Positions 15,915-37,621 of a stretch of 64,000 nucleotides of DNA are shown piece after piece (the stretch's first letter is position 1; every line of letters starts with the position of its first letter). Source of the stretch: Minisyncoccia bacterium. Lineage in GTDB: Bacteria > Patescibacteriota > Minisyncoccia > Phycocordibacterales > Phycocordibacteraceae. The DNA is taken from contig JBEKII010000002.1 in the NCBI GenBank assembly GCA_050011835.1, positions 76,173-140,172 on the forward strand, read 5' to 3'. The translations under genes and the position numbers were made by a program. Below the pieces are notes generated by a model. That model searched no databases. It was not told where the DNA came from and saw only the letters and a list, made by a program, of their open reading frames with translations.

Positions 15915-15918
15915 AAAT

Positions 15919-16497
15919 ATGACTACAAAAGGATTCACCCTCATCGAGACCATGGTTGCCATCACGATTCTCACTGTCGCGATTGCGGGAGCTTTTTTTA
16001 CCGCGAATAGTTCACTCGTCGCTGCAGAAATTGCGCGCGACCAACTTACCGCTTCCTACCTCGCGCAAGAGGGCATCGAGTATGTGCGCATGATGCGCGA
16101 TGACGAATATCTCAAGGCTTATCAGGTAGGCGGCACGAACGTTTCGACTACCGCGTGGAATAATTTCTTAAATGGGTCTGATGCCGCATCGATTACCCAG
16201 TGTCGCGGTACGATAAGCAGTCCGATAACCTGTACGCTTGACCCATCGCGCTCTATGGGCTCGGGAAGTGGTTCTTCGCTTCAGCCCTGTTCTGGTTCTG
16301 CGTGTATACCACTCTATCTAGCGAGCACGGGCATTTATAACGAGCAAAGTTCAGGAACGAAAACATCTTTCACGCGCACCATACAAGCAGTCGATATTTC
16401 CGCGAGCGATGAACGTATTGTCTCAAAAGTGTCATGGAGTTTCCATGGCATCTCGCATTCGGTAACTATCACCGACCATCTCACGCCATGGCAATGA
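15919..16497 (+). CDS. Minor pilin / pseudopilin
   Basis: MTTKGFTLIETMVAITILTVAIAG prepilin N-terminus. Confidence 0.65.
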   Translation: MTTKGFTLIETMVAITILTVAIAGAFFTANSSLVAAEIARDQLTASYLAQEGIEYVRMMRDDEYLKAYQVGGTNVSTTAWNNFLNGSDAASITQCRGTISSPITCTLDPSRSMGSGSGSSLQPCSGSACIPLYLASTGIYNEQSSGTKTSFTRTIQAVDISASDERIVSKVSWSFHGISHSVTITDHLTPWQ

Positions 16498-17009
16498 AAA
16501 ATAAAAACCAGAAAGGTTTCGCACTTCTCGTCGCCGTCATCTTTATGTCGGTGATGCTTACACTTGGTCTTGCGCTCGCTTCCCTCGGCTATAAACAGGA
16601 ACTTCTCGCGTCAACGGCCATTGAATCGCAGTATGCATTTTATGCCGCCGATGCCGGTCTTGAGTGCGCTCTCTATGCTGATCAACAACTGGACTTATTT
16701 GATTATGCTTCGCATAGTGTGGCCACTCCTCCTAATACAATTACCTGCGATGGCGTATCGGCGACGCAATTACCTGGAAGTTATTCATATACTACTGGCA
16801 CCAATGGCACACTATCTGTCTCCGAACGTCTCTCGCTCGATTCAAACACACACTGCGCAATTGTAACGATTTATAAATACAGTACACCGCAGTCGCCAAC
16901 AAATTTTGTTACCTACCTTTTCTCCCAGGGCTTCGACGTTCCCTGCACTACCGTGGCGAATCCGGGAGGAACGCGCTTTGTATCGCGGGGTATCAGCGCC
17001 CATTATTAA
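16488..17009 (+). CDS. PilX-like minor pilin
   Basis: MAMKNKNQKGFALLVAVIFMSVMLTLGLALA. The start is placed at the internal Met so it does not overlap the preceding gene. Confidence 0.5.
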   Translation: MAMKNKNQKGFALLVAVIFMSVMLTLGLALASLGYKQELLASTAIESQYAFYAADAGLECALYADQQLDLFDYASHSVATPPNTITCDGVSATQLPGSYSYTTGTNGTLSVSERLSLDSNTHCAIVTIYKYSTPQSPTNFVTYLFSQGFDVPCTTVANPGGTRFVSRGISAHY

Positions 17010-19034
<2,025 letters not shown>

Positions 19035-19047
19035 TACACTGCGCATA

Positions 19048-19350
19048 ATGGCGACGAAAGAAGAAGTGAAAAAGCTCGCGGCGCTCGCGCGCATCCGCGT
19101 CGCGGACGCAGAACTTGATAAATTCACGAGCGAATTTGACGCGATACTCGCGTATGTTGGACAACTCGAAAAGCTGGACGTGCCGCAAAATTTCAAAGAT
19201 AAAAGGCCGCCGTTGCGCAACGTAATGCGTGTAGACGGTGAGCCGCATGTGCGGGAGGTATATACCGAGAAACTGGTAAAACAATTTCCTGCACGTGAGG
19301 GAACTGCGCTTGTCGTGAAGCAAATTATCCAGCATGACGAAACCGAATGA
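19048..19350 (+). CDS. gatC: Glu/Asp-tRNA amidotransferase subunit C
   Basis: 100 aa. GatC-like and immediately upstream of gatA. Confidence 0.75.
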   Translation: MATKEEVKKLAALARIRVADAELDKFTSEFDAILAYVGQLEKLDVPQNFKDKRPPLRNVMRVDGEPHVREVYTEKLVKQFPAREGTALVVKQIIQHDETE

Positions 19351-20767
19351 GATGACCATCAGAGAGGCCGCGCGCGCGCTCCGCGCGAAAGAATTTTCCG
19401 TGCACGAGCTGTGGGATGCATGCGCCGCCGCCGCGCGCGCGCGCAACAGCGAATTAAACGCATTTCTTGAACTATTTGATGCAGACGATGCGGCGATAGC
19501 TGCGGCACAGAAACGCATTGATACCGAGCGAGAATTGGCGGACGTATCGCTCCTCGCCGGCATTCCGCTCGCGATAAAAGACAACATACTTATAGAAGGG
19601 AAGATTGCGAGCGCGGCGTCAAAGATATTGGAGAATTATCGCGCAACTTATGATGCGACGGTTATAAGAAAGTTAAAAGAAGCGGGAGCGCTCTTTCTCG
19701 GGCGCACCAATATGGACGAATTCGCGATGGGTTCTTCAACGGAGCACTCCGCCTTTGGCACAACGTTGAATCCTCACGATGTATCTCGCGTGCCTGGCGG
19801 TTCTTCCGGCGGTTCCGCCGTAGCTGTTGCCGCGCATCTTGCTATTGCCGCTCTCGGTTCCGATACCGGCGGTTCCGTCCGCCAGCCGGCGGCGTTTACC
19901 GGTATCGTGGGATTAAAGCCGACTTACGGTGCCGTCTCGCGTTCCGGACTCATTGCTATGGGTTCCTCGCTTGACCAAATCGGTCCTCTGACTCAAACCG
20001 TTGAAGACGCGCATATTCTCTACAAAGCAATCCGCGGCAGGGACGCGATGGATTCAACGACCATTCCGGACGGACTCTACGGCTCGCGTGAGCTTTTGAA
20101 GCGTCTTCGGGTGGGTGTGCCGCGGCATTTACTTAATCAGGGTATTGATGCGGATGTGCGCGCCGCCTTTGATTCTATGCTTGAGCGACTCATGAACGCA
20201 GGACACGTGCTCGTTGATGTCGAACTGCCGATGAGCTCTCATGCGCTCGCGGCGTATTACGTCATCATGTTTGCCGAAGTTTCCACGAATCTCGCGCGTC
20301 TTGATGGCATCCGCTATGGCCGCGCGGCGCGCGGAGGAACCCTGCTTGACGATTACATCATCTCGCGCACCGAGGGCTTCGGGGGAGAAACGCGCCGCCG
20401 CATCCTGCTCGGCACTTTCGTTCTCTCTTCGGGCTATATTGATGCGTATTATCGGAAGGCGGACGCCGCGCGTGCGATATTGCGCCAAGAGTATGAAGGC
20501 GCCTTTCGGAAAGTAGATGTTATCGCTTTCCCCACGACGCCATCTCCGGCATTTAAATTTGGCGAGAAAAGCGACCCGCTCTCTATGTACCTTGGAGATA
20601 TCTTTACCGTGACCGCAAATCTTACCGGCATGCCGGCGATTTCCGTTCCAATGGGTCGTGTTGAGCGCGAAGGGAAAAAACTTCCTGTCGGCATCCATTT
20701 CACTGCGCCGCATCAGGCAGAACACGTACTCTTTGCCGCTGGAATTGCGGTGGAGAAGACGCGATAA
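19334..20767 (+). CDS. gatA: Glu/Asp-tRNA amidotransferase subunit A (amidase)
   Basis: 477 aa. Amidase signature GGSSGGSAVAVAA. Confidence 0.9.
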   Translation: MTKPNEMTIREAARALRAKEFSVHELWDACAAAARARNSELNAFLELFDADDAAIAAAQKRIDTERELADVSLLAGIPLAIKDNILIEGKIASAASKILENYRATYDATVIRKLKEAGALFLGRTNMDEFAMGSSTEHSAFGTTLNPHDVSRVPGGSSGGSAVAVAAHLAIAALGSDTGGSVRQPAAFTGIVGLKPTYGAVSRSGLIAMGSSLDQIGPLTQTVEDAHILYKAIRGRDAMDSTTIPDGLYGSRELLKRLRVGVPRHLLNQGIDADVRAAFDSMLERLMNAGHVLVDVELPMSSHALAAYYVIMFAEVSTNLARLDGIRYGRAARGGTLLDDYIISRTEGFGGETRRRILLGTFVLSSGYIDAYYRKADAARAILRQEYEGAFRKVDVIAFPTTPSPAFKFGEKSDPLSMYLGDIFTVTANLTGMPAISVPMGRVEREGKKLPVGIHFTAPHQAEHVLFAAGIAVEKTR

Positions 20768-20795
20768 ATCCTTCTCGCCGCGTATACTAGAGGCA

Positions 20796-21368
20796 ATGCC
20801 TGCAGAGCAACTCAATGTAGAATATCTTTTCCGTCTCATTTACGATTGTTTTCGTGGCTCGTGTTATGGGTCAATGAGCGGACTCTCTGCATGGCTCGCA
20901 CATCTCTGGCTCTGGATTATCGCTATTGGCTATACACTTTCGGTTATAGGGCTTTTCGTTATCGTCTATACGACAGTGCGCCTCTTTGAACTGCGCGCGC
21001 GAGAGGAGAAATATTATGGTACGGTCATTTCCGTTCCAGGTGCGAAAGGCGCCACAAATCCGCGCTGGAAGCATATTGAGTCGCTTGCAGACAGCGCGAG
21101 CGCGAGTGAGTGGCGTGAAGCGATTATTGAGGCCGATATCATGCTTGATGACCTGTTAGCGAGGCAGGGATATGTGGGCGACGGCATTGGCGAGAAGTTG
21201 AAGAGCGTTGAACCGACAGAATTCAAAACTCTCCAGGATGCGTGGGAGGCGCACAAAGTTCGCAACCAGATCGCGCACGAGGGTTCCGCTTTTGAACTCT
21301 CCGAGGTGCTCGCGCATCGCACCATTGCGCGCTATGGGAATGTCTTTCGCGAATTTAAGGAGATATAA
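20796..21368 (+). CDS. Hypothetical membrane protein
   Basis: Internal Met start (MPAEQLN...). Two TM helices followed by a soluble domain. No family recognised. Confidence 0.4.
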   Translation: MPAEQLNVEYLFRLIYDCFRGSCYGSMSGLSAWLAHLWLWIIAIGYTLSVIGLFVIVYTTVRLFELRAREEKYYGTVISVPGAKGATNPRWKHIESLADSASASEWREAIIEADIMLDDLLARQGYVGDGIGEKLKSVEPTEFKTLQDAWEAHKVRNQIAHEGSAFELSEVLAHRTIARYGNVFREFKEI

Positions 21369-21421
21369 AGTTGCGGAGCGTATTTAATAAGTATATTATT
21401 TATTTTGTTAGAAATTTATAT

Positions 21422-21492
21422 CGCGGGGTAGAGGAGAGGTACCTCGGGAGGCCCATAACCTCCAGACGCCGGTTCGATTCCGGCCCCCGCAA
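21422..21492 (+). tRNA. tRNA-Met(CAU)
   Basis: Acceptor CGCGGGG/CCCCGCA with a C1:A72 mismatch. T8A9. D-stem GAGG/CCTC. Anticodon stem GGAGG/CCTCC with loop CCCATAA. T-arm GCCGG-TTCGATT-CCGGC. Confidence 0.75.
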
Positions 21493-21575
21493 CACGGTTG
21501 TGAGTCAGTGTCAAGTACCGCCCCGCACCAGAAGTTTTGAAAAGTTGATACAGTACCGATAGGCATGAAGCTCCG
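21488..21575 (+). repeat. att-like core CAACACGGTTGTGA plus ~80-nt tail, copy 1; overlaps the tRNA-Met 3' end
   Basis: The same core and a related tail (..CAGTACCG..GTACTGTACCGA..) recur at 32572 and 34618. Degenerate cores occur at 24752 and 35848. Confidence 0.6.
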
Positions 21576-21585
21576 AAAAAACACA

Positions 21586-21615
21586 AAAGCCGCGACGTAC
21601 GTCGCGGCTTTTGTG
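21586..21615. terminator. Bidirectional terminator (perfect palindrome)
   Basis: aaaagccgcgacg-tac-gtcgcggctttt, lying between tRNA-Met (+) and the RT 3' end (-). Confidence 0.6.
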
Positions 21616-21632
21616 TTTGTCTAGCACACATG

Positions 21633-22715
<1,083 letters not shown>

Positions 22716-22717
22716 GT

Positions 22718-23068
22718 ATGAATGATGCCGATATTCCGATTCTGAAGAAAGCATATGATTTGTATCTCACCTTTCACACGTATCGGCGTGTCGTGCCCAA
22801 AGCCGAGCGATTCACCCTCTACGAACGTTGTGAGAACGCAATTCTCGATATGGTCGAAGCGATTCTTGAAGCCGGATACTCGAAGAGCGCACAGAAGATG
22901 ACAGTGCTCGAACGTGCAAGCGTGAAGCTCAATATCATTCGCTTTTTCATCCGCCTTTTGAAGGAAACTCGTTCCATCGATACGAAGAAATATGTGAAGC
23001 TCCAAGAAATGATTGATGAGATCGGTAGAATGCTCGGCGGATGGATACGATCGACGGATTCTCGATAA
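22718..23068 (+). CDS. avd: DGR accessory variability determinant (Avd; four-helix-bundle family)
   Basis: 116 aa. C-terminus EIGRMLGGWIRS resembles the Bordetella phage bAvd EVGRILGSWIAR. Placed adjacent to the RT. Confidence 0.75.
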   Translation: MNDADIPILKKAYDLYLTFHTYRRVVPKAERFTLYERCENAILDMVEAILEAGYSKSAQKMTVLERASVKLNIIRFFIRLLKETRSIDTKKYVKLQEMIDEIGRMLGGWIRSTDSR

Positions 23069-23109
23069 CAAACAGCGTCCGTCAGGACGCTGTTTGGGGT
23101 GAGAAGCGA

Positions 23110-23239
23110 CTTCGGAAGGAACGCCGATGCCGAACCATAGTTGTCGTTCGCATTGTCGATCCAGTTCGTGTTGAACTTGAGCCTGCCGTCGTTGAAGTTG
23201 AAGATCGGCGCGTTCGAGAACTCGGACTCGTCGCTCGGC
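23110..23239 (-). repeat. DGR template repeat (TR); sense strand is minus
   Basis: ~130 nt matching the 3' end of the target gene. Rich in AAC codons. Mismatches to the VR are mostly at TR adenines. Flanked by the perfect hairpin aaacagcgtcc-gtca-ggacgctgttt (23075-23105). Confidence 0.7.
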
Positions 23240-23675
23240 GTTTGCCCTCGCCCGTCCGTGGCACCGGAGCTTGAGACCGTCTCTCGCTCCTGAACTTTAT
23301 CCGGCGACACCGTATTAGCGGTTCGCCTTGGGCGAAGGCAAGCAGTATCTCCTCACCAAGGGCACGCTTGTGCAAATCGTGATCGGCACAACTCTGGCCC
23401 GGTTTCTCGAAGAGAAAGAGTTCGGCGACGGCCGTCCGTGGAGAACCGTGCATGAGCCTAGACTCGCTCATGAATATAGCAGATGCGGCGGAATCGCGGA
23501 ATTTGACTATTTATACCAGACGTGCTATCCTCTAGCCAGATTAAAAGTCCTTTCCAATCCAAGAATCACTGGGTATGAGACGAGCTTTTTGCGGCTTATT
23601 GCTAGGCCGTAGCAAGCTCGTCTCATACAGAGCCGCACGTCGGGGCGAATCCGGCAAAAAAGGAGAGCTAACGTT

Positions 23676-24582
23676 ATGAAAACGCTTACTCAAACTCAAG
23701 AACCAGCAACCGAAGGGCAGATCAAATCGATTGCGCGCGTAGGTTCGGACGCTGCCGACAAAGCCGTTCGCGATTATTTCGCAGCAAACCCAACGACCAA
23801 AGAAAATGCACAGCGCGGACATGCGAGCGGCGACCAACTCGCCGACGTAATCCGCACCGCCGTACAGTCCTGGCTCGCTGACACCGTCGTCTCCGACAAG
23901 TACAAGGACGAAGAAGTGGAATCCAGCTACGGCTATCTTTCCGGGTATATCAAGCCGAAAGATAGTGCCGACCAGCTCAAGATCCTGCACGAATACTTTC
24001 CGGAGCTGCCAAAGGGCGATTTGTCGCCGCTCGGCATCGCTGCAGAAAATGCAGAGGGTACTTTCATCATTCCGCACTGGTCGCTCGTTGCCAAAACCTA
24101 TCCTGAAGCGGTACAGAAAATCATCGTTGCACTCACCAAACAGCGTGGCGGCAAATTCCACAACTACCGCGATGGCGAGATTGACGCAGATCACATTCGC
24201 GAAACGACGCAAAAGATTGCGGCCATGCAACAGCTGCGTGACGCACAGAAGAGCGATCTGCTTCAGGTTCCTGCACAGTTCGGCATTCGCCATCGCGGAC
24301 GCTCAGTCCGCAGGGCACGCGAAATCTTCGCCGTCAACGAGTTCGGTCTCGGTGCCTGGGAAATCGGCTGTATGCTCCTCACCACCCATCCCGAGCGCCT
24401 CAACGACTACAACGACCTCTGGATCGATTGTGCTGGCGATGAGTTCAAGCCGAGCGACGAGTCCGAGTTCTCGCGCGCGCCGGTCTTCAGCTTCCGCGGC
24501 GGCAAGCCCATGTTCGGCGCTGGCGAGGTCGGCATTGCCAACGACGACTATGGCTCCGCATCGGCGTTCCTCCCGCAGTGAT
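23676..24582 (+). CDS. DGR target protein with a C-terminal variable region (C-type-lectin-like VR)
   Basis: 301 aa. Strong RBS aaggagag. The C-terminus ...SDESEFSRAPVFSFRGGKPMFGAGEVGIANDDYGSASAFLPQ matches the TR-encoded ...SDESEFSNAPIFNFNDGRLKFNTNWIDNANDNYGSASAFLPK. Confidence 0.75.
24450..24579 (+). repeat. DGR variable repeat (VR)
   Basis: Aligns to the TR over ~130 nt with 28 mismatches, 19 of them at TR adenines. Followed by the inverted repeat ctcgagtcc...ggctcgag (24591-24637). Confidence 0.7.
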
Positions 24583-24643
24583 TCTTGTATCTCGAGTCCT
24601 TGGCTCTTTTGTGTATTCTTGATCCTTGGGCTCGAGAAATTTT

Positions 24644-24680
24644 CGGGGCTGTCCATTGCGGATGGCCCCGATTTCTTTTT
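24644..24680 (+). terminator. Rho-independent terminator after the DGR target gene
   Basis: cggggctgtccat-tgcg-gatggccccg followed by atttcttttt. Confidence 0.55.
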
Positions 24681-24689
24681 ATTATGATG

Positions 24690-24770
24690 GGCGTCGGAAT
24701 CGAACTAAAAGTTCAAGCATCTAGGCCATAGAAAGTCCAGTTCGATTATGGACCCGGCAACAAGGTCAGA
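24690..24770. repeat. Island junction: two oppositely oriented tRNA-3'-end-like fragments, a 30-mer repeat, and a degenerate att core
   Basis: Minus strand: GTTCGATTCCGACGCCCATCA. Plus strand: AAGTCCAGTTCGATTATGGACCCGGCAACA, identical to 34595-34624, followed by aggtcagactg (degenerate CAACACGGTTGTGA). Confidence 0.55.
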
Positions 24771-26267
24771 CTGTCCAGCACGGAAGTCCTTAGATAGCTT
24801 GAATATGGGCGACAAAACAGCGGTGCCAAACAATCCGGTGGTTTTGTCGTACACGATGCCCTCTGGTAGCACCAATTTCTGCAATCGTTGCTTCTTTGCA
24901 GGGTTCGTTAGATCGAGCCACTGACGCGCCACATCGCGCACAAATTGCGTTCCATAGGCCAGTTGTATCTCAAGGTCTGCTTCGCTCGTCTGTGCCTCGT
25001 TCTTGGCGATTCTAAGCCCTGTGAGCTGGTTATCTAGCGAATCACGCATCTCGGTATATTCTTCTTTAGAAATCTCTTGGTTAACGCGCATAGTCAGTAG
25101 TCGTCGCTTCTGATTCTCCAAGTTGCCCAATCGGACGGCATAATGCTGTTTCTCCTGTCCCGCGCTTGTCTTGCGAGAGCGTATCTCGTCGAGCATCACT
25201 TGTTCAAACATACTGACAAACTTCTCGGTAGGCGTAATCCGCTTTAGGTAACCGTAGAACTTCTTTTCCAAAATATCCTTGGCGATATTATCTCTGTTGG
25301 TACAGGCCGAATTGTGGCAACGATAGTAGGGGTACTTTTTACCACTACGGCCTGTCTGCCAACTCGCGGTCATGAAAGATCCACAGGTACAGCGAATAGC
25401 CCCGCGTAACGGGAAATCGGGATGGTGTTTAAGGCGGAAACTGGTCGCGTTATTTGATAACCCGCGCTTCACGTTCTGAATGGCCCCGTATTCTTCAAGC
25501 GTAATCATCGGCTTGTGCAGTCCTCGATGTTCGTCGCCGCTCCACGGGTCAGTAAGGACTCCGGCATAGAACTTGTTTGTAAGTATTACGTTCCAGAGCT
25601 GTTTGCTCATCGGCTTACCGGTTCGCGTTTGTAAACCCCATTTATTACTCTCCTCGGCCAGTTGCGTGATGGTGTGCTGTCCGCCAGTATAAAGGCGTAA
25701 ACCCTTTTGAATGAGATAGAAACGCTCCTCATCTGGTTGATCCGGTAGAAGCTTGCGACGCTCCACTCTGTTCTTTGAGTTCGTATATCCTATTGGCGGC
25801 ATCCATGGCGAAATGCCATCGCGCAGACGCGCCCGCATACCGCCCTCGCATCGTTGCTTGCGTATATCGTTTTCAAATTGAGCATATCCGGCTAGCATCG
25901 CCTCAAGCATTTTTCCTACAGGCCCCTCGCTGATTATTTCTTCCGTAACTGAATGTAGAGAAGTGCCGTACTTGAGCAGTTGCGCTTGTAGCCCATAGTG
26001 GTCGGTCATGTTGCGAGCGAAGCGGTCGAGCTTCCAGACAATGAAGGCCTTTATCTCGTCCTTATGTTCCTTGCAGTAGTCGAGTGCCTTGATGAGTTCG
26101 GTGCGATTCGCGGCAGTAGCCGATTCGCCGCGCTCAATGAAAATCTTTGCCACCTTTAAGCCCTTATTTTCGGCATACTCTATACACGCACGCTCTTGGC
26201 TCTCCAAACTGGTGCCGTGGAGCTGGTCGTTAGAAGATACTCGACAGTATATGATTCCTTGGTTCAT
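24705..26267 (-). CDS. Large serine recombinase (integrase)
   Basis: 520 aa. N-terminal resolvase catalytic domain IYCRVSSNDQ...S...R, a recombinase domain, and a Cys-rich zinc-ribbon region (CTCGSF...CHNSAC). Its 3' end overlaps the 30-mer repeat. Confidence 0.85.
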   Translation of the reverse strand: MNQGIIYCRVSSNDQLHGTSLESQERACIEYAENKGLKVAKIFIERGESATAANRTELIKALDYCKEHKDEIKAFIVWKLDRFARNMTDHYGLQAQLLKYGTSLHSVTEEIISEGPVGKMLEAMLAGYAQFENDIRKQRCEGGMRARLRDGISPWMPPIGYTNSKNRVERRKLLPDQPDEERFYLIQKGLRLYTGGQHTITQLAEESNKWGLQTRTGKPMSKQLWNVILTNKFYAGVLTDPWSGDEHRGLHKPMITLEEYGAIQNVKRGLSNNATSFRLKHHPDFPLRGAIRCTCGSFMTASWQTGRSGKKYPYYRCHNSACTNRDNIAKDILEKKFYGYLKRITPTEKFVSMFEQVMLDEIRSRKTSAGQEKQHYAVRLGNLENQKRRLLTMRVNQEISKEEYTEMRDSLDNQLTGLRIAKNEAQTSEADLEIQLAYGTQFVRDVARQWLDLTNPAKKQRLQKLVLPEGIVYDKTTGLFGTAVLSPIFKLSKDFRAGQSDLVAGSIIELDFLWPRCLNF

Positions 26268-26497
26268 GGGGTTCCTTCGGTTAATGATACACCGGAAAGC
26301 GCGTCTCGTTTTCCATACCCGTCTTCTTTGCCAATGTCCAAAATCAATCCGGCGAGTTTATACATCTCGTCTCTAACAGCTGCAACCTCGGAATCACTCA
26401 TTGATTCGCTGGTTTCAGCGTCTAGATATTTCCGGCAATCTTGAACGTTGAGCATAGCTATCTCCTGTTTTCGCCCTCGGACATACACGGCATACAC
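26264..26497 (-). CDS. Small hypothetical protein upstream of the integrase (excisionase or regulator candidate)
   Basis: 77 aa, acidic. Its stop overlaps the integrase start (operon-like). Confidence 0.35.
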   Translation of the reverse strand: MYAVYVRGRKQEIAMLNVQDCRKYLDAETSESMSDSEVAAVRDEMYKLAGLILDIGKEDGYGKRDALSGVSLTEGTP

Positions 26498-26499
26498 AA

Positions 26500-26610
26500 A
26501 ATGATTTCAATGAGCATCTGTAAGGGCACTGTGAGTGTATGCGCCCGTGTATGCGCAAGTGTGGTGTATGAGGAGCATGCACTTGGAATCGATATACACG
26601 TTTCCATACA
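26500..26610. promoter_or_regulatory. Iteron-like cluster of TGTATG/CATACA motifs
   Basis: At least 7 copies in 110 bp (catacac, gtgtatgcgc x2, gtgtatgag, atatacacg, catacact), immediately upstream of the small-ORF/integrase operon. Confidence 0.45.
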
Positions 26611-28050
26611 CTAGGATTCTTTAACATCTCCCTCATTCGTTTCGGGAGTGCATGGTTGTGTAGGCACATCCTCGTTTGCGACAGAGAAGTACGCCTTGTA
26701 GACCGCATCGACCTGTTCTCGCTTGAAGCGGTAACGTGCAGCCCTGTTGCTTCTCGGAAGTTTTTCAGAAGAGAGATTGAATTTAGCGATGACTTTCCCA
26801 ACTTCAGCCGCCCGCTGTTTTTTTGTGATGCAGTCCTCATCAAACAGAAAGACGTCTACAGACTCAGAGATTTCAGATGGCGAAAGAACCATCTCATCCT
26901 GCTCGCCTAAGAGCTGGCGTGTGACCTCTATGATGGCTTGCTCCAGATCCGATACTTGGTATTCAGTGAAGTTGTATTGAGACAAGAATCGTTCCTTGGC
27001 TATTCGCTGGTCGTTTTCCGGTACTCCAAGTACAGAAAACATGACATCGAAAAGCATCCAGAGTTCCAGTTTCCTTGCAAAAAATGCAGGGTTGGTCTGT
27101 CGTTCATACTCAATCTTCTTCATTACATGCGTACCTACAGCAAACATAAAATGGCCAATCAACAATCGGTACAAAGCCCCTCTGGTCTCTTTCCATATAG
27201 GGCTCTCCTCATCAAGAGACTTGAAATTCTTTCTGCTACGCACCAACGAAATGACGATGCACCGGTCGCGCAAGTCTTCGGGGAGTTCTTTTATTGAGGC
27301 AAACGCCTTCGGACTATACGCTTGAAATTCCTCCAAATTCCAATTCTTGCCCTTATCGGCAACCATTTTTCGAATGTTGCCACCCCCACGCTTATAGGAA
27401 TCAGTGAGGATGTCGAGAAGGTCTTCCATGTAGAATGGTCTATTGAGAACATCGGCTTGATCCATGAGATATGTGCCTCGCAACGAATCAACCGTGTCTC
27501 GTAGCGCTGGGAGGCTTGCACGGGCTTTGGTGGCGTTGAAACAGACTTGGTTCAAGAAGCTCAAGCACTGGGTCTTTCCGGAGCCTTTTGGCGCTTTAAT
27601 GTGCAGATAGGGATACGCCGAGAACAGCGGAAAGAAATACGTTCCGATAGCCCATGTACACATAAGAATTACATCAGCCTCGTCAATATCCATGTGTTGT
27701 TTGAGGAGGCTTTTGAGACTCTCGAATATCTCTAGTGGCGCTTGTACTTTCTGACCCGTGAGAAAGGTTTTTAGGAACGCATCGAGTTCTTTTCTGCTCC
27801 ACCGGTGCGCGAGCTTGGCCAGCACTCTTTTCTTAGTGTCAATGTAGTATGTTTTATCTTTAATCGTGAAAGAGTTGCCGGTGATGGTAAAGGCCGATGT
27901 GGCGGTCGCAATAACGAAAAGCTCACTACCGTCTTTGTTAGCCTCCGGTTTGACTCTGAATCCGAGCACGAGAATGTCGTCCTTGATGTCGAGTGATGGG
28001 TGAAAGTTTATTTCCTCGTAGAAGTCAGTCTCGTTGCTTTGCGTTTCCAT
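26611..28050 (-). CDS. P-loop NTPase, likely a replication helicase/primase-associated protein (VirE/D5-like)
   Basis: 479 aa. Walker A KAPKGSGKTQ. Walker-B-like YLMDQAD. In island context. Confidence 0.5.
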   Translation of the reverse strand: METQSNETDFYEEINFHPSLDIKDDILVLGFRVKPEANKDGSELFVIATATSAFTITGNSFTIKDKTYYIDTKKRVLAKLAHRWSRKELDAFLKTFLTGQKVQAPLEIFESLKSLLKQHMDIDEADVILMCTWAIGTYFFPLFSAYPYLHIKAPKGSGKTQCLSFLNQVCFNATKARASLPALRDTVDSLRGTYLMDQADVLNRPFYMEDLLDILTDSYKRGGGNIRKMVADKGKNWNLEEFQAYSPKAFASIKELPEDLRDRCIVISLVRSRKNFKSLDEESPIWKETRGALYRLLIGHFMFAVGTHVMKKIEYERQTNPAFFARKLELWMLFDVMFSVLGVPENDQRIAKERFLSQYNFTEYQVSDLEQAIIEVTRQLLGEQDEMVLSPSEISESVDVFLFDEDCITKKQRAAEVGKVIAKFNLSSEKLPRSNRAARYRFKREQVDAVYKAYFSVANEDVPTQPCTPETNEGDVKES

Positions 28051-28062
28051 ATCAATTTAGTG

Positions 28063-28332
28063 TTAATTTCCATTTAATCTGTCGAGTAACTCGTTTCGCG
28101 CACGCTCGTAGAGATGCACCGGCACGAGTAATTCCGTGTCGTTTCGTTCACCGAATTTATATTTCTCAACTAGCTCCTCTAGGTAAGGTGAGAGCACGAA
28201 CGCAAACTCTTTTTTGCCCGAATCCGATACAACATTGATGCCTGCTATCTGCTGGTTTTTAGCGAATAAAAAGATAGCGAGTTTTAATGATGTGGTGCGG
28301 AGGTACCGCTCTTTATCTGTTCTTGATTTCAT
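28063..28332 (-). CDS. Hypothetical small protein (island)
   Basis: 89-aa ORF in operon arrangement with the ATPase. Confidence 0.35.
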   Translation of the reverse strand: MKSRTDKERYLRTTSLKLAIFLFAKNQQIAGINVVSDSGKKEFAFVLSPYLEELVEKYKFGERNDTELLVPVHLYERARNELLDRLNGN

Positions 28333-28476
28333 CTTTCAATTTTCTTACGAATCATGAATGATGCGAAGCGATTGTGGCCGATGGGAAAATCTAAAACACG
28401 GCTCAAATCATAAAGAAAATACCTGCGGAAGCAGGTCATATTTCACTCGCGTACAATCGACTGCGCTAAAACTACT

Positions 28477-29025
28477 TTATCGTGTGTTGTTAAAAATTAT
28501 TCCTTCGCCCTTTTTCGCTTCTATCAGAGGGCGATTCTCACTTGAGCTGTTTTCAATATTTTTCGCGTATCTGAAAAAACCATTCTGTTCGCTGGTCAAG
28601 TTAGTTCTTATTCTGGCATCTCTGTCACTTCCGTTTTTAGGAGCTATTTTTCTTCCCTTAATCCTTCGTTTTCTAAGAGCAGTCTCAATCTCTGCGTACG
28701 TTTTTTCTCCACCATCTGGCATAAGCTCGAATACAACATCAAAAACATTAAAATAGAGGGTGTTTCGGTTACCTATCGAAATAGAAGCTCCATTGTAATA
28801 ATAAGTCTTATCTACCTTGTCTACGATTCGATTGTCTTTGACTTTAAATCTATTTTCTAACTCCTTAATCCGCCTCTCATGTCCGTCAACCATATCTAAT
28901 CTTGCTTCAATCATTGCTATATGTAGGGCTTTACTGTGAGGGGTGCCGTAAAGAGCATCAAAAAGCAAGTGACGCCTCTTGCGTTTTAGATCCCCCTCAT
29001 TTACTGAAATATTCTTATTCTCCAT
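28477..29025 (-). CDS. Hypothetical protein (island)
   Basis: 182-aa ORF. No recognisable motif. Confidence 0.4.
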   Translation of the reverse strand: MENKNISVNEGDLKRKRRHLLFDALYGTPHSKALHIAMIEARLDMVDGHERRIKELENRFKVKDNRIVDKVDKTYYYNGASISIGNRNTLYFNVFDVVFELMPDGGEKTYAEIETALRKRRIKGRKIAPKNGSDRDARIRTNLTSEQNGFFRYAKNIENSSSENRPLIEAKKGEGIIFNNTR

Positions 29026-29149
29026 ATCAATCTCAATGCAATTATCTCATATTTTGCGCCATATTTCAAGCGTTTTGTACACATGTGAGCGTCATGAACT
29101 TTGATGGTGCTAGCAAGATTACTACTACCTGCTACACTAACCTCGTAAA

Positions 29150-29300
29150 CCGAATATGTGCCTAAACCCTCGGTAACGAGGGCATGGCGAGAGGCCCTGT
29201 AGAGATCAGAAAACCCATCATGTGGGACTGTCTCTACAGGCCGTAGCGGGAAACCGTTATGGAGGGCGCAAGCCCTCACCCATGTGGTGGGTTTTCTGCG
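29150..29300 (+). ncRNA. Candidate structured RNA or cis-regulatory leader with three GNRA-capped hairpins
   Basis: ccctcg-GTAA-cgaggg. ggccctgtagaga...tctctacaggcc (13-bp stem). cgg-GAAA-ccg. gagggc-GCAA-gccctc. Strand is uncertain. Confidence 0.3.
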
Positions 29301-29336
29301 TAAACACAAACTCTCCTCTGGCTTTAATAGATTGAG

Positions 29337-31157
29337 ATGAAAATTACCATGAAAAAAATTACCGTCGCTCTCGCCGTTCTATTTTTTGTAGTGCCATCAG
29401 TATCGTTTGCAGCGGGTCTCACGAATTCACAAATTCAAGCAATACTCTCACTTCTTTCCTCTTTTGGCGCAGATAGCGCGACGGTTGCAAGTGTTCAGAC
29501 AGCTCTAACCGGAACATCAACGACCGGAGGGCAATCCTGCTACAACTTCTCTACCAATTTACGCATAGGACAAAGCGGCTCTGGCATCACCGCGCTTCAA
29601 ACGGCGCTTCGGAATGACGGGGAATCAGTAACCGTGAGCGGCTCGTTTGACGATCAAACCGCCTCTGCTGTTACGGGTCTCCAACAAAAGTATGCAAACG
29701 ATATCCTTACCCCGAATGGCCTTCAATACGGTACTGGCTATGTTGGTGCTGCAACGAGAGCGAAATTGAATAGCCTTTGTGCCAATGGTTATCAACAGAC
29801 GACCTCAGCGATGAATCCGGCGACAACACAAACAGTAACGCCGACACCGCCGACACCGCAGACCAATCAACAAAATACTCAGCCGGTAACACCAACTCCG
29901 ACACCTTCTGTTTCTTCAACACAAACAAATTCACCATGGGTAGACATTAAGGCCGATGGTTCTAATGGCCCGATTACTATGCCCATAGACGGCCCAGCAG
30001 TAACAATCTCTTGGACATCGCATGGTGTACTGAATTGTGCCTTTACCGACATGTCGGGTGTAGCGACGAGCGTCAGCACATCTGGCAGTAAATCGGAATC
30101 GTTCTCAGGAACGGCGCAGAAGAATACAGTAACTATTAGCTGCTCTGCTCTGGTGAATAATGTTGTTACACCAAATGCGGTTTCCGACTCGGTCGTTGTG
30201 AATGTAGCCCCTCCAACAGGGCAAATCTCACCGATTTCCGTTTCATCCGATTCGAGTCCAGCCAATGTATTCCAAGGTACCGGCGGGACACTCGCTAGCT
30301 TCACTCTGACTGGTTCAAATGAGGCAGTAAAAGTTACCGACCTCTATCTCTGCTCCATTGATTCGATTCATCATGGTGGTCTTGCAAACGTCTCCATCAT
30401 GGGAGTCAATGCCTCGACACTGTCGATTGTCGACTGCGATACGAGCCCTGCAGGCACTGACTTCTCGCTCGGTTCTTCTCTCATCCTGCCAGCCAGAGGT
30501 ACGGCCTCAATAACTGTCTCCGGCACTGTGAAAACATCGACAGGAACAAATCTCTCGGACGGCGAGACGGTGCAAATCAAGCTCGTCGGTCAGGGTTCTC
30601 AAGGATCTAATGGCGTAGGCCAATCTTCACTCAATCCTTACACCATACCGAGTAGCGATGTCTTAGGACGCGCGGTGCCCGTTGTCGGTAGTGGGACACT
30701 TTCTGCATCTCCGGCATACTCGTGCTCGTTGGTTCAGACCGGTCTTGGTAATCAGAGTGCCTGTCTCGGATCATTTACGCTCTCTGCGATGAAAGAGGGA
30801 ATCACCGTTAACACAATAGGAATTGATATGTCGGCAGCCAATGCGGCGCTCGTGACGAATCTAACACTGAAGTATCACTATGGTGATAACAATCAGGGTG
30901 CAGTACTTGGCTCAGTCATCACAACACCAAGTGCAAACAATCCGTTTTATATGACTCCTGTATCTTTTGGTACTGGGAGGGGTCTCGATATTTCAACCTC
31001 GGGACTCACAACGATTGATGTCTATGGAAATGTTCCATCGGGTGCGGGTACAATTCAATTGACTCTCGACCCATCGACGAGCGGTACTGGCGATATGACG
31101 GGCATTTCGGCCTCGCTTGCCTCGCCAGTGCAGCTCAAGGCCGTTACAATTCAGTAG
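29337..31157 (+). CDS. Secreted cell-surface protein with a PG-binding-like domain and Ig-like repeats
   Basis: 606 aa. Signal peptide plus a conserved leader (AAGLTNSQIQAILSLLSSFGADSAT). A LxxGxxGxxVxxLQ PG_binding_1-like block. Thr/Pro-rich linker. Confidence 0.65.
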   Translation: MKITMKKITVALAVLFFVVPSVSFAAGLTNSQIQAILSLLSSFGADSATVASVQTALTGTSTTGGQSCYNFSTNLRIGQSGSGITALQTALRNDGESVTVSGSFDDQTASAVTGLQQKYANDILTPNGLQYGTGYVGAATRAKLNSLCANGYQQTTSAMNPATTQTVTPTPPTPQTNQQNTQPVTPTPTPSVSSTQTNSPWVDIKADGSNGPITMPIDGPAVTISWTSHGVLNCAFTDMSGVATSVSTSGSKSESFSGTAQKNTVTISCSALVNNVVTPNAVSDSVVVNVAPPTGQISPISVSSDSSPANVFQGTGGTLASFTLTGSNEAVKVTDLYLCSIDSIHHGGLANVSIMGVNASTLSIVDCDTSPAGTDFSLGSSLILPARGTASITVSGTVKTSTGTNLSDGETVQIKLVGQGSQGSNGVGQSSLNPYTIPSSDVLGRAVPVVGSGTLSASPAYSCSLVQTGLGNQSACLGSFTLSAMKEGITVNTIGIDMSAANAALVTNLTLKYHYGDNNQGAVLGSVITTPSANNPFYMTPVSFGTGRGLDISTSGLTTIDVYGNVPSGAGTIQLTLDPSTSGTGDMTGISASLASPVQLKAVTIQ

Positions 31158-31962
31158 GGGTACTGTTTGGTAGTGTGTTATTTGGCGCAAAATAGTTAGG
31201 AATTAAGCCTTATTCATCAATGTCAGCACACGACACCAATTTTGTTGTTCTTGGTCAATATCTTGCCGGCTAGCTTGGTCTAAGCTAAGTTATAAATAGG
31301 AACGCAAAAAAGCCCTTCTTTCGAAGAGCTTTCTGGGTTCTCAAGAGTTACACCTCTTTTTGAACAGTCTTGTTTCTAGGAAGCGCTCTTAACCTTACGG
31401 CGAGAGCGTTTTCCTTTTCTCGACACTCCCCCAATAGGGAAGCACTTGAACCCGTAATCGGAAGCGTGTAATACGCGACCGTTACGGAGGGTTATGGTTG
31501 CAACGCAATTCATAGTTCTGTTTTTGTTGGCGGAGCTTGATAAAGATTTCATTATTTCAGGGCGTCACGCACTTCACTCCCTAATGCGCTGGCAGAAAAC
31601 ACCGATGGATAGACCAACGGTCAAAGCCAATAGATTTCAAAGAACAAAGGCCTCAAGGGACGGGACTCCGTGGAAGTTTCCTTCCGCGAAATACCCTCCT
31701 CTAAGGCCTTCTAATCTGTTCGATTTGAAAATCTGTTGTCTTAGGTAATTCGGTAAGTCCCGTCCCCTCTTGCGAGGTAACTCCAATATAACACTTTTTT
31801 CTTTGTCAATAGCCTTTTCGGAAAGACACCTGTGGAGAGCGGATTATTCGTCGTCTTTCCCTTCCATCTTTGCAGTAATTATCCTAGTTAAACTAAAATA
31901 ACCTATCATCAGGCTAGTTAAACTAACATAATATATCATCCGACAGCATCCATTCGGGCTAT

Positions 31963-32481
31963 TTAAGTGGCCGCTGCCGCGACGTCCTCCATCGTGATAC
32001 CAGCCCGCTTGATGAGCATGTATTTCGTTTCGCCGGAGAGATATGGCTTTCGTATCGCACGGGATATCGCTCTCGCTTTCCTCGATGGTTGCTCATACTG
32101 AAGGCGACAGCAGATACGGCAGAGCGGGGATTCCAACATACTGTATTCGTAAAGGTACTTTACACGGCGGTAACAGCCGTTGCAGCGGAAGTAGAAAATA
32201 TATCCTCGGTCTGGCCCAAGATTGGAGGGTACGAACTCTACTTTCTGCCGATCCCAGTATAAATAACCGCCATGAATATCTCGCGCCGACTTAAAAGCGG
32301 TATTTTCAGGAAGATTTATCTGCTCAACCATATTTTTGACTTCGCCTAGATGTCGGGTGTTGAATATCCGCCCCCTATCCCTCATGTGCCACACAAAGGT
32401 TCTGATGTAGTCAGTAATATCCTTTCGATCTAACACTGTTATTTTCTGGTTTTTCTCTTGTCGGGAGCTGTACATAATCAC
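31963..32481 (-). CDS. Hypothetical protein with a Cys4 zinc-finger-like motif
   Basis: 172 aa. CNGC...CRICC motif. Confidence 0.4.
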   Translation of the reverse strand: MIMYSSRQEKNQKITVLDRKDITDYIRTFVWHMRDRGRIFNTRHLGEVKNMVEQINLPENTAFKSARDIHGGYLYWDRQKVEFVPSNLGPDRGYIFYFRCNGCYRRVKYLYEYSMLESPLCRICCRLQYEQPSRKARAISRAIRKPYLSGETKYMLIKRAGITMEDVAAAAT

Positions 32482-32571
32482 TAAGAATCTCTAAGACAAC
32501 TCTGCATAGCTCCGCAAATCCACGCTCAGCCATGCCGAAATCTGTTGCCAATCTCGTCTAACGGATGCAAC

Positions 32572-32690
32572 ACGGTTGTGACGCCAGGAACCAGTACCGT
32601 CCCCCGTCAAAATTGGTACTGTACCGACCCTCATGGTCGGCTAGAAAAGCGCATAAAACCACGAGAGTGATTTTTGCGTATGTAGCATTT
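32572..32690 (+). repeat. att-like core plus tail, copy 3
   Basis: caacacggttgtgacgccaggaaccagtaccg...ggtactgtaccgac...aaaagcgcataaaaccac. Confidence 0.6.
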
Positions 32691-32812
32691 CCAACATATT
32701 TCCAGTTCAATTCCGACTCTCGTATTCGCCACTGTTTTGTGTTCTAATCACGGGAATCTGGTTCAATTCCGGCGCGGGTTTTTATATAAGAAAAGAGTAT
32801 ATAATCTAGAAA

Positions 32813-33397
32813 ATGAAGCGCATACCAATACCAAGTCCTTATTTTGACCTGAACGAACAGGTGAGCGATCTCTATTACGACGCAATGGAATTGGTTGATA
32901 GCGGGAAGGTTGGTGCGAAAAGGGCAGAGAAACTTTTAACAAAGGCACTTGAGCTCGATCAGCATTCCGTTCAGGTTCATATTGGTTTTGCACATGTATA
33001 CGGAACGCTTGGGGACAAAGTGAAGGCCGAGGATCATATTAAAAAAGCGTATAAAGAAACACAAAAACTCTTTCCCTCATGGCCTCGGCGCATGGAATGG
33101 GGCATTATGGAGAACCGGCCGTATATGCGAGCCATTCAATATCAGGCAGATTTATACGCTCGCACGAAAGTGAACGAAAAAGCCATTGAGCTATACCGGC
33201 TCCTTTTAAAAATGAATCCGAATGATAATCAGGGAGTTAGGTACACACTTTCTGGCGTCTATGCGGGAATAAGCGGTCAGGAGATAAACGCGATGTTTGA
33301 TGAGGGGAACGAAAAGCAAAACTGGGACGCGCTTGAACTACTGGTCAAGGAACAAAACGCGCAACACAGGTTTTGGAAAGAACCAAAACTGAAGTAG
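32813..33397 (+). CDS. TPR-like repeat protein
   Basis: 194 aa. Helical repeat pattern of the form (ALELDQH...AYKE). Confidence 0.5.
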   Translation: MKRIPIPSPYFDLNEQVSDLYYDAMELVDSGKVGAKRAEKLLTKALELDQHSVQVHIGFAHVYGTLGDKVKAEDHIKKAYKETQKLFPSWPRRMEWGIMENRPYMRAIQYQADLYARTKVNEKAIELYRLLLKMNPNDNQGVRYTLSGVYAGISGQEINAMFDEGNEKQNWDALELLVKEQNAQHRFWKEPKLK

Positions 33398-33412
33398 TTT
33401 TGCTGAGCCTAA

Positions 33413-34468
33413 TTATTTTCTTCGATATCGCGTCGAACGGCCGCTACCGATGCGCTCGATCATCTTGAGCCGCATGAGTTTCTGCAAGGCTTGATTCACA
33501 GTCGGGCGCGGCACTCCAGCCGCGAGAGCAATTTCGCTCGGAGTCGCAGTGCCGGTCTGTGGAATATTCTTCCACACTAATTCCTGTTGCGGCGAAAGAA
33601 GTTGTTCGGTCTGTGCGTGCGTGAGCAAGTTGAGTGCCTGTTTCGACTGTTCAAGAATCACATTCAAGAAGAAGCGCATCCACGGTGTGATATTCGCATT
33701 GTTAAATCGAAACGTTCGTTGGCTCTGTCGGAGCGCGAGATAGTAATCGGTCTTATGGTCCTCGATGATTTTCTCATGCGAGACGTAGGGCATATAGGCG
33801 TAGCCCTGCTGCAAGAGAAGAAGGTTCGTGAGAATGCGTGACAGCCGCCCGTTGCCGTCCTCGAACGGATGAATGGCGAGAAATTCCACGATGAAGTTGC
33901 CGATGACGAGAAGAGGATGAAATTTCCGTTCGAGAATCGCTTGTTGTGTCCACTCCACGAGTTCCAACATTTCTTTGCCGGTCAGATACGCAGGCGTAGT
34001 ATCGAACAGCACACCAACCGACTCATCGGCGGCGTTTACCATCTCAACACGATTTTCTTTCTTCTTGTATTCGCCCCGATGCAGTTCGTCTTTTTCTGCA
34101 TGCTTCAAAAGCTCGCGATGGAAAAATTTAATAGTGCCTTCGGAGAAGGGAATTGATTGATACGAATTGAAGACATTCGTGAGCAATTCATAATATCCTT
34201 GGACCTCTTGCGCATCGCGACTTCGGAATCGCTTGAGCGAGAGTCCGCGCATGAGTTTCTCTACGTCTTCATCAGAGAGTTCTGATCCTTCGATGCGCGT
34301 CGAAGCGCCTGTCGAAGTGACTAGTACTGATTTTCGCAGACGCGTGAGCACCTGCCGATCCAAGTTAGCGCCTTCAACCCACTGCCCGCGAAGCTCGTCT
34401 ATCTGGCGAATAAGCTCCGAGATTTCGTTCGGAAAGGTCGTTATTCTTTTGTTAAATTTTCCATTCAT
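33413..34468 (-). CDS. Fic/Doc family protein with a C-terminal winged HTH
   Basis: Fic motif HPFEDGNGRLSR (HPFxxGNGR). Start set at the internal Met (MNGKF...). C-terminal wHTH. Confidence 0.8.
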   Translation of the reverse strand: MNGKFNKRITTFPNEISELIRQIDELRGQWVEGANLDRQVLTRLRKSVLVTSTGASTRIEGSELSDEDVEKLMRGLSLKRFRSRDAQEVQGYYELLTNVFNSYQSIPFSEGTIKFFHRELLKHAEKDELHRGEYKKKENRVEMVNAADESVGVLFDTTPAYLTGKEMLELVEWTQQAILERKFHPLLVIGNFIVEFLAIHPFEDGNGRLSRILTNLLLLQQGYAYMPYVSHEKIIEDHKTDYYLALRQSQRTFRFNNANITPWMRFFLNVILEQSKQALNLLTHAQTEQLLSPQQELVWKNIPQTGTATPSEIALAAGVPRPTVNQALQKLMRLKMIERIGSGRSTRYRRK

Positions 34469-34594
34469 AATCTTATATATCTGATACATGAGATTGTATA
34501 AGATTACATAAGAAAATGCAATATCCTGAGTACTGAACGGGGCGTAGAATTTAATAAAAGCAAGTAGATAAGCCACATGTGACACTTTTCAGAT

Positions 34595-34730
34595 AAGTCC
34601 AGTTCGATTATGGACCCGGCAACACGGTTGTGATGTCGGTTTCCAGTACCGGTGTTCGTCAAAATCAGTACTGTACCGACTCCTTCGATTGGCCAAAAAA
34701 GCGCATAAAACCACATGAGCGCCAAGAAAG
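34595..34730 (+). repeat. 30-mer (integrase 3'-end duplicate) plus att-like core plus tail, copy 4
   Basis: aagtccagttcgattatggacccggcaaca-cggttgtga-tgtcggtttccagtaccgg...gtactgtaccgac...aaaagcgcataaaaccac. Confidence 0.6.
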
Positions 34731-34754
34731 CGCTATACTGCGCTCATCGGTCCT

Positions 34755-36208: not shown

Positions 36209-36214
36209 AATAAT

Positions 36215-37012: not shown

Positions 37013-37032
37013 AACGCTGTCTCGTTAAGGTC

Positions 37033-37605: not shown

Positions 37606-37621
37606 ACAAAAATCACATGGT

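Follow-up and report, generated by a model that had tools for sequence, protein, structure and literature searches.

Why should codons close to the end of a recombinase gene recur, letter for letter, far away on the same chromosome? The question arises in a stretch of 64,000 nucleotides from a Minisyncoccia bacterium (GenBank assembly GCA_050011835.1, contig JBEKII010000002.1, positions 76,173 to 140,172), which we call the window and number from its first letter. An initial, sequence-only reading of this DNA had noticed that the 30-mer AAGTCCAGTTCGATTATGGACCCGGCAACA is duplicated, and indeed there are two exact copies, at 24733-24762 and 34595-34624, both on the plus strand; none of 100 shuffles gave a 30-mer match. 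The first copy lies in a 520-aa open reading frame (ORF) for a recombinase, the second in a 73-aa ORF (34504-34725, minus strand), and the nine residues VAGSIIELD are encoded in both, as had been claimed; in the recombinase these are residues 503-511, translated from the reverse complement. Past the 30-mer the likeness goes on for 4 nt, with one mismatch.

Our answer is that the two copies are not partners. Very probably, the recombinase carries the attachment site of its element (attP) within its own last codons, the element is 24763-32566, its target (attB) is of the initiator tRNA (tRNA-fMet) type, and the C-terminal tail of the enzyme was swapped on integration. The second 30-mer is a spare, empty landing site of the same host repeat.

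The recombinase and the limits of its element

Judged by its domains, the recombinase is a large serine recombinase (LSR), in agreement with the sequence-only reading. Pfam finds Resolvase (PF00239, 1.3e-30 over residues 5-151), Recombinase (PF07508) and Zn_ribbon_recom (PF13408); no Phage_integrase domain was found on any ORF of the element, and the LSR is its sole recombinase. The exact protein is on record as P0121, from a Minisyncoccia metagenome-assembled genome (MAG). Across 27 homologs there is no or hardly any variation at the nucleophile serine S11 (in YCRVSS) and at R9, and the homolog alignment shows the zinc-ribbon cysteines C293, C295, C317 and C322 to be invariant. For the fold we used an AlphaFold2 model of P0012, a 65%-identical homolog and not the window protein itself, with a mean predicted local distance difference test score (pLDDT) of 85.5. 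It has the catalytic domain, the recombinase domain and a zinc ribbon with a long coiled coil at 347-426 (helices 347-394 and 400-426), followed by a tail of three helices (498-507, 509-524 and 527-543; pLDDT about 85-91). Its top Foldseek matches are full-length complexes of LSRs with their att sites (E 1e-17 to 1e-14), including the SPbeta-type 9dxh, Bxb1 9iu2 and phiC31 9rah; a PDB sequence search covers the catalytic domain only, the remainder being matched through the fold search.

That the 3' coding end of the integrase overlaps an attachment site is confirmed. The statement that this end is encoded by the 30-mer holds for residues 503-511, but the last nine codons and the stop fall in the flanking DNA outside it, and the protein ends in ...SDLVAGSIIELDFLWPRCLNF. 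The body of the gene runs up to codon A504, and the following 16 codons come from a pseudo-tRNA arm and its flank.

The limits of the element are given by an empty site. An exact-protein look-up of the left-flank gene retrieved contig L005 (JGI 3300038429), which matches window 13676-24766 at 99.99% and 32567-42317 at 100%, that is, flanks of 11.1 kb and 9.8 kb; the matched stretches share 10 nt at the core, with breakpoints at 24766/32567. L005 joins 24762 directly to 32573, reading ...ccatagaAAGTCCAGTTCGATTATGGACCCGGCAACA up to the join and CGGTTGTGACGCCAGG... after it, and is without precisely 24763-32566. The element is therefore this interval, lying between two GCAACA cores. A further contig, L006, terminates exactly at 24762, as expected for a polymorphic insertion, and the GC content is 0.47 in the element versus about 0.51 in the flanks. 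These isogenic empty and occupied sites lend indirect support to recombination of attP with attB by the LSR.

The same contig decides about the proposal that the two 30-mers recombined with each other as attL and attR, the two junctions of a 9.9-kb element (24733-34624). An interval of lower GC with an integrase at one end, enclosed by exact 30-bp direct repeats, does have the looks of such an element. However, L005 keeps the second 30-mer with its module (at 13110-13230, 2 kb past the join) as well as the TPR and Fic genes (32813-34585), and only 24763-32566 is missing; the second copy is thus part of the element-free genome. Further, joining the LSR to the second 30-mer gives an unrelated hydrophobic peptide, ...VAGSIIELDLSEKCHMW..., unlike the C-terminus of any homolog, whereas the join at 32567 gives the tail of the family. 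In two related but diverged genomes, L065 and L066, the repeat even stands in tandem without any LSR. With L005 the 9.9-kb element is refuted.

We give practically no credence to the other idea raised about the second copy, namely that it is what remains of a paralogous integrase gene after decay. It does encode the same nine residues in its 73-aa ORF, but tblastn with the LSR recovers residues 503-512 only (E=3.1), with no other LSR likeness on either side, and a hidden Markov model (HMM) of the LSR tail has no match there. The copy aligns instead with the 3' end of tRNA-fMet and its trailer, as an unoccupied host repeat.

The derivation of the site from a tRNA, also proposed earlier, is borne out. 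Identity between the plus-strand part of the 30-mer and the tRNA-Met 3' end in the window (21465-21498) is 74%, and the 30-mer is a diverged copy of the T arm and acceptor 3' strand of tRNA-fMet; inspection shows both bases altered in two pairs of the T stem and one pair broken. The tRNA-Met starts with CGCGGGG and ends with CCCCGCAA, which leaves a C1:A72 mismatch. This mismatch is a hallmark of bacterial initiator tRNA. The gene is followed by the original trailer module of about 100 nt (GCAACACGGTTGTGA...GTACTGTACCGA..., 21489-21590), of which there are copies at 32567-32667 and 34619-34719 and a weak partial match at 35856-35873. The element used a pseudo-site (24733-24762 plus 32573-32667) and not the real tRNA-fMet, and the host repeat serves as a secondary attB for the LSR.

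This repeat, a unit like the tRNA-fMet 3' end with its trailer of about 100 nt, punctuates the variable region downstream of tRNA-fMet and separates small cargo blocks: a diversity-generating retroelement, the TPR and Fic genes, and a 330-aa ORF. The central 60 nt or so, around GCAACA, hardly vary even among diverged genomes from groundwater, and in L066 two repeat copies flank an 899-aa ORF. A complete tRNA at 24690-24762 was rejected for both strands (ARAGORN, Rfam and inspection). Both tRNA-like fragments noted earlier at the left junction are present, but the minus-strand one, GTTCGATTCCGACGCCCATCA at 24685-24705, is also in the empty site and does not form part of the junction made by the element. 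Two other tRNA 3'-end fragments lie at 32704-32726 and 32760-32782 (plus strand). All three are cut off at the T loop and run from there to the acceptor end. They are in the element-free L005, so they predate the LSR insertion, and may have been left by earlier integrations at different tRNAs. A T-arm-like match is at 45846-45856 (minus strand).

The divided gene in the window and in its relatives

Joining attL and attR in silico gives an LSR of 528 aa with a continuous frame, in which ...SDLVA is followed by SVRRDWQQISAWL... and which ends in ...SDLVASVRRDWQQISAWLSVDLRSYAELS. The tail, a conserved amphipathic helix of about 24 codons, is thus placed at the far end of the integrated element. 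The tail HMM, built without the window, matches it at 32524-32571 on the minus strand (E=2.6e-4), and the rejoined tail falls in the conserved-tail class of homologs.

These homologs number 1,421 proteins at E<=1e-20, mostly from Parcubacteria/Patescibacteria; the C-terminus classes were derived from the 79 of 120 listed homologs in which a script could locate the junction. The proteins agree up to ...S(D/E)LVA and then diverge into two classes. In 52 of the 79 the C-terminus is tRNA antisense, G(A/V/G/P)G(I/F)(E/A)P..., often ending in RL, while 16 have the conserved tail, (x)V(R/G)x(D/N)W(H/N)QI(I)xDIxxI..., as do several of the 11 unclassified ones. The window tRNA-Met read antisense is VAGAGIEPA, which is the C-terminus of homologs, and after RL the stop TGA comes from the anticodon loop (CTCATAA, antisense TTA-TGA-G).

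A scan of 185,579 species genomes with the LSR alignment yielded 53 loci, of which 42 were analysed. The LSR ORF overlaps an antisense tRNA called by ARAGORN in 28 of the 42, and eight have the tail form without an adjacent tRNA (six by pattern, L011 and L034 by eye). The remaining ones are cut by contig ends or Ns, except L018, where the C-terminus reads as tRNA antisense though ARAGORN calls no tRNA. Insertion into a tRNA gene with restoration of the gene by element DNA therefore holds for the family (the 28 loci). The window copy lacks an intact tRNA, its target being a decayed tRNA-fMet 3' fragment that neither ARAGORN nor Rfam calls. The sequence-only reading had remarked that such an overlap is unusual for serine integrases and more like tyrosine integrases; the remark was apt, and the feature is conserved across this LSR family.

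Relatives down to about 45% identity target tRNA-Met. The targeted genes have a 1:72 mismatch (C:A or A:A) in all cases but L027 (T1:A72); neighbouring tRNA-Met genes start with G1, like elongators, and have G1:C72 where the 3' end is readable. Three calls of 'tRNA-Ser/Leu/Arg with intron' share the fMet acceptor stem and are intron-containing tRNA-fMet. At about 40% identity the targets are tRNA-Ala, Tyr or Lys. As for the introns, in several hosts they are group I introns (Rfam RF00028, 52-72 bits) in the anticodon loop of the targeted initiator tRNA gene, which ARAGORN miscalls as tRNA-Ser, Leu or Arg; the LSR ORF runs antisense through the 3' exon into the intron and acquires a long junk C-terminus.

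About 16 of the tRNA-overlapping loci have a detached tail upstream of the LSR and on its strand. When the tail HMM was searched against six-frame translations of all loci, 12 loci and the window matched at E<0.01 (1.7e-8 to 4e-3), all upstream and on the LSR strand; intact gene ends aside, no match at this threshold was found on the opposite strand or downstream of the LSR. Joining at the core (C)TTGTTGC(G) gives ORFs of 515-527 aa in L008, L010, L012, L014, L024, L025 and L026, and with GTTGC as anchor the tails at the far end in L015, L019, L040 and L045 fall into the codon register of the LSR. Core detection by longest common substring returned spurious 5-7-mers in six of 13 loci; the GTTGC anchoring mended four, and the core is left unplaced in L009, L018, L027 and L047. 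The elements of the family measure 6.1-9.9 kb. A clade that targets tRNA-Ala (L033, L050) has the same split with another core, GTGGAC, the antisense of ...GTCCAC(CA), and far-end tails at E about 1e-7. The position of the split is invariant across clades in which the tRNA target has changed.

The attP core lies inside the LSR frame, in the Leu-Val-Ala codons (CTT GTT GCx); reverse-complemented, they match the initiator tRNA-Met 3' terminus (...GCAAC followed by AA). In the antisense view attB consists of the host trailer, then TTGTTGC, then GGGGGCCGGAATCGAACC..., and attP reads ...(a/c)gTC(T/C)GAcc-TTGTTGC-(n)3-4 G(g/a)T(a/c)AGAC...ATTGGAACCA; the two attP half-sites encode S-D-L-V-A and V-R-R-D-W. 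The common core is 6 bp in the window and 7-11 bp in relatives. In 17 attP sites one dyad centre alone falls within the core, between the T and the G of TTGTTGC; symmetry peaks slightly higher at a point beyond the shared core, where the crossover cannot be. The predicted crossover dinucleotide is accordingly C71-A72 of the tRNA, the CA within GCAACA. Integration keeps the tRNA sequence up to A73 and swaps the 3' trailer.

The lineage has moved more than once. Within the 90%-identity cluster of the window LSR there are five different C-termini after an identical ...SDLVAG, thus at least five independent junctions. An LSR 97% identical in amino acids occupies the real tRNA-fMet of another species (L001/L007), a host whose GatA is only 75% identical to that of the window; the disparity points to horizontal transfer. 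Three members of the cluster, P0124, P0127 and P0129, are short fragments of near-identical LSRs at contig ends that finish with ...SDLVAGAGPRYKRK, a junction peptide that fits neither the T arm of a normal tRNA-fMet nor the pseudo-site of the window, which suggests yet another integration context.

The tail form also occurs uninterrupted. P0012 comes from three samples, flanked on either side by element genes (L060-L062), and some tail-form genes are in large contigs, including those of Alphaproteobacteria, Limisphaerales and Sumerlaeota, so that there are unsplit relatives outside Patescibacteria. One unsplit relative (L002, JGI 3300042090, a 195-kb contig, at 10001-11593) has as neighbours a type I restriction-modification system, a DNA methylase, a helicase, a VirD4/TraG-like coupling protein and a Replic_Relax relaxase, and hence some family members belong to conjugative or mobilisable elements.

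What the exchange of tails may do

The events are as follows. Recombination at the core fuses LSR residues 1-504 to whatever lies antisense on the chromosome, usually the tRNA-fMet acceptor and T arm (with ...LVAGAGIEPA... as the result), and sends the last 24 or so codons to the opposite end of the element; excision would restore the 528-aa protein. The exchange may change the behaviour of the enzyme between its free and integrated states, and could be a built-in switch of directionality or stability, possibly together with the 77-aa protein encoded next to the LSR. The detached tail may be under selection at the protein level because the element excises regularly. We incline somewhat towards a functional effect, because conservation of the tail reaches past the att half-site and is also seen in unsplit relatives.

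The same anatomy could of course have arisen with no such effect, if attP drifted into a dispensable gene end and the swap is a neutral by-product. This we hold to be a serious possibility, although not the favoured one. Only about 24 of the 528 residues are exchanged, the catalytic and DNA-binding domains stay intact, the replacement peptides are arbitrary and depend on the target, and the conservation of the tail could partly act at the DNA level, through the attP half-site. Against neutrality speaks that the tail is kept as a predicted helix well past that half-site, also in unsplit homologs outside Patescibacteria, and that the split stays in place when the tRNA target changes. In addition, non-synonymous changes are fewer than synonymous ones in the detached tails, and in the correct frame only: pN/pS is 0.63 in frame versus 0.92 and 1.15 in the other frames, with pN below pS in 61 of 66 pairs, a crude estimate given that pS is about 0.7, near saturation.

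The roughness of that estimate is one of several points that weigh against our reading. A search for the excised circle or attP junction of the window element, with an exact 28-mer, gave 0 matches in metagenome and viral contigs; the 528-aa form is absent from the 90% cluster of the window LSR; and no closed circle was found when the attP-form contigs L060-L063 were tested for terminal overlap. The tail-form homologs L002, L023, L031 and L051 sit in large chromosomal contigs of non-Patescibacteria, so an intact tail alone is no proof of a free element. The conservation of V-R-R-D-W, the first residues of the tail, may partly be at the DNA level, its codons being the P half-site.

It can be asked whether integration is rather a 'suicidal' lock-in, in which the integrated LSR is inactive and excision needs a full-length copy in trans. 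The self-splitting integrases of the SSV type are a precedent (PMC8371274), and the missing attP junction would fit. We nevertheless regard a lock-in as quite unlikely. The LSR lineage (at least 90% identity) is at five or more junctions and in hosts with 75%-identical GatA, which means repeated escape from the chromosome, and the integrated ORFs and detached tails are intact in about 16 loci.

At the other extreme, the exchange of the tail might act as a directionality switch complete in itself. Integration would be done by the full-length enzyme, encoded by the excised circle only, and the tail-less enzyme, encoded by the integrated copy only, would be able to excise, alone or with the 77-aa partner. 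We think this unlikely, if slightly less so than the lock-in. If it were true, each state of the DNA would encode the form of the enzyme for its one available reaction. Directionality in serine integrases, elsewhere dependent on a separate recombination directionality factor, would then follow a new principle, and engineering would gain a compact, tRNA-targeted, potentially reversible integrase.

Other features and known systems

The 77-aa ORF is always upstream of the LSR, on the LSR strand, in 13 related loci (tblastn) and has no Pfam or PHROG match; L060-L062 have a second, inverted copy directly after the LSR. It may be an accessory factor, a recombination directionality factor or a regulator. 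The LOOT RNA is present within six of seven other integrated elements tested (61-83 bits), always on the strand opposite to the LSR, and in the window lies 60 nt upstream of a 606-aa peptidoglycan-binding gene. A functional description of LOOT RNA was not found in the literature searched, where it has a single passing mention and is absent from the main text of the motif-discovery paper. The cargo ORFs have almost no matches in Pfam, PHROGs or NCBIfam, the exception being a PG_binding_1/endolysin-like segment in the 606-aa protein.

Between the pseudo-attB copies lie a TPR protein (32813-33397, plus strand) and a Fic/DOC protein with a C-terminal winged-helix, helix-turn-helix domain (33413-34585, minus strand). 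An exact-sequence look-up of the 390-aa Fic sequence found no record; L005 annotates a 351-aa version. A tyrosine integrase beside the second 30-mer was considered and rejected, the adjoining ORF being this Fic/DOC protein. The retroelement occupies 21633-24581, between tRNA-fMet and the LSR element; its variable repeat would be at the 3' end of a 301-aa target gene (23676-24581). Elsewhere in the window ARAGORN finds a transfer-messenger RNA gene (53255-53676, plus strand) with the tag peptide AKSPYFGKVGDIAFAYATARG.

Table 1. Coordinates of the element, its attachment sites and associated features (window positions unless a contig is named)
Feature	Position	Strand	Basis
Integrated element, 7,804 bp (7,810 bp as a circle with one core)	24763..32566		Absence in L005
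Integrated-form LSR gene, 520 aa	24705..26267	-	Pfam, translation, P0121, homolog fold
Detached LSR 3' end, 24 codons (SVRRDWQQISAWLSVDLRSYAELS) and stop, in frame once attL and attR are joined	32491..32566	-	In-silico join; tail HMM
attL core GCAACA, common to attB and attP; crossover must fall within	24757..24762	+	attL/attR/L005 comparison; family core TTGTTGC in LSR sense
attR core GCAACA	32567..32572	+	attL/attR/L005 comparison
B arm of occupied pseudo-attB, left part of first 30-mer	24733..24756	+	74% to tRNA-Met 3' end; unchanged in empty site
B' arm and rest of the ~100-nt trailer module (CGGTTGTGA...GTACTGTACCGAC...)	32573..32667	+	Contiguous with 30-mer in L005; 76% to 34619-34719
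Second 30-mer and module, intact unoccupied paralogous pseudo-attB, outside the element	34595..34719	+	Present in L005; alignment
Initiator tRNA-Met(CAT), C1:A72, canonical family attB, unoccupied here	21422..21493	+	ARAGORN, Rfam; antisense VAGAGIEPA
77-aa ORF, overlaps LSR start codon	26264..26497	-	tblastn, 13 related loci
LOOT RNA (Rfam RF03000)	29159..29277	+	84 bits vs gathering 46.4, model positions 1-121
LOOT RNA in relatives	L008 6465-6580; L010 6851-6966; L014 4280-4395; L015 8189-8305; L024 8272-8389; L026 7867-7983		
Group I introns in targeted tRNA-fMet	L001/L007 1685-2028 (-); L024 11556-11780; L026 11534-11797		Rfam RF00028
Reverse transcriptase	21633-22754	-	Part of diversity-generating retroelement
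Avd	22718-23068	+	NCBIfam DivGenRetAVD, 92 bits vs cutoff 80
131-nt inverted repeat, like template and variable repeats	23109-23239 / 24449-24579		79% complementary

The interest of the family is partly practical. The mobile elements of Patescibacteria are otherwise poorly known, and in their MAGs such elements can be mapped by a rule: an LSR ORF ending in ...LVAGxGIEPA and a detached W-N-Q-I tail 6-11 kb upstream. The split also explains a recurring annotation artefact, 'recombinase' proteins whose C-termini are variable junk and which overlap tRNA genes, and the orphan LOOT RNA is now placed on a defined mobile element and linked to Patescibacteria. LSRs are leading tools of genome engineering, and both the universally conserved initiator tRNA as a target and the state-dependent C-terminus can be tested in vitro.

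In its enzyme the family resembles the LSRs of phiC31, Bxb1, A118/LI, SPbeta (SprA) and TP901-1: there are the Resolvase and Recombinase domains, the zinc ribbon with inserted coiled coil, the nucleophile serine and zinc cysteines, short att sites with a very short core, an integrase at the edge of the element and, through the homolog P0012, a full-length fold match to solved LSR complexes. It differs in that it targets the 3' terminus of a tRNA, that its hosts are Patescibacteria, and that attP lies within the integrase ORF, with the C-terminal 24 or so residues replaced. The attP core in the 3' end of a gene has a parallel in the mycobacteriophages BPs, Brujita and Charlie, in which, as Broussard et al. 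reportedly described in 2013, the gene is that of the repressor, integration alters its C-terminus and behaviour, and the integrase is a tyrosine recombinase. The window family splits the serine integrase itself, not a repressor.

According to Mageeney (2020), no serine integrase was known to use a tRNA gene as its target, and self-splitting integrases of the SSV type have been described as exclusive to Archaea in a 2021 review (PMC8371274). The family contradicts both generalisations, since a whole clade of bacterial serine integrases targets tRNA genes and splits its own gene. We found no published description of a self-splitting bacterial or serine integrase, in a search that reached few subscription journals, so that this absence is not proof.

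With tRNA-targeting islands of tyrosine integrases (Islander/TIGER), in which element DNA restores the tRNA and which are sporadic among strains (PMC4383910), the family shares insertion at a tRNA 3' end, restoration of the sequence and the integrase beside the tRNA. However, its recombinase is a serine recombinase, its identity block is 6-11 bp rather than tens of bp, and the target in the window is a pseudo-tRNA fragment, with no functional tRNA involved.

In mode of action the family is like the SSV-type integrases of archaeal viruses and plasmids, in which attP in the integrase gene overlaps a tRNA gene and the two gene parts flank the integrated element (PMC8371274). As in the integrases of SSV1, pTN3 and pT26-2, attP is in the integrase gene, overlaps a tRNA and partitions the gene on integration. 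Those are archaeal tyrosine recombinases, whereas ours is a bacterial serine recombinase; their split removes a large part of the protein, whereas the window family loses the terminal helix only and gains tRNA-antisense codons instead. The window LSR works like the SSV-type family and is not a member of it.

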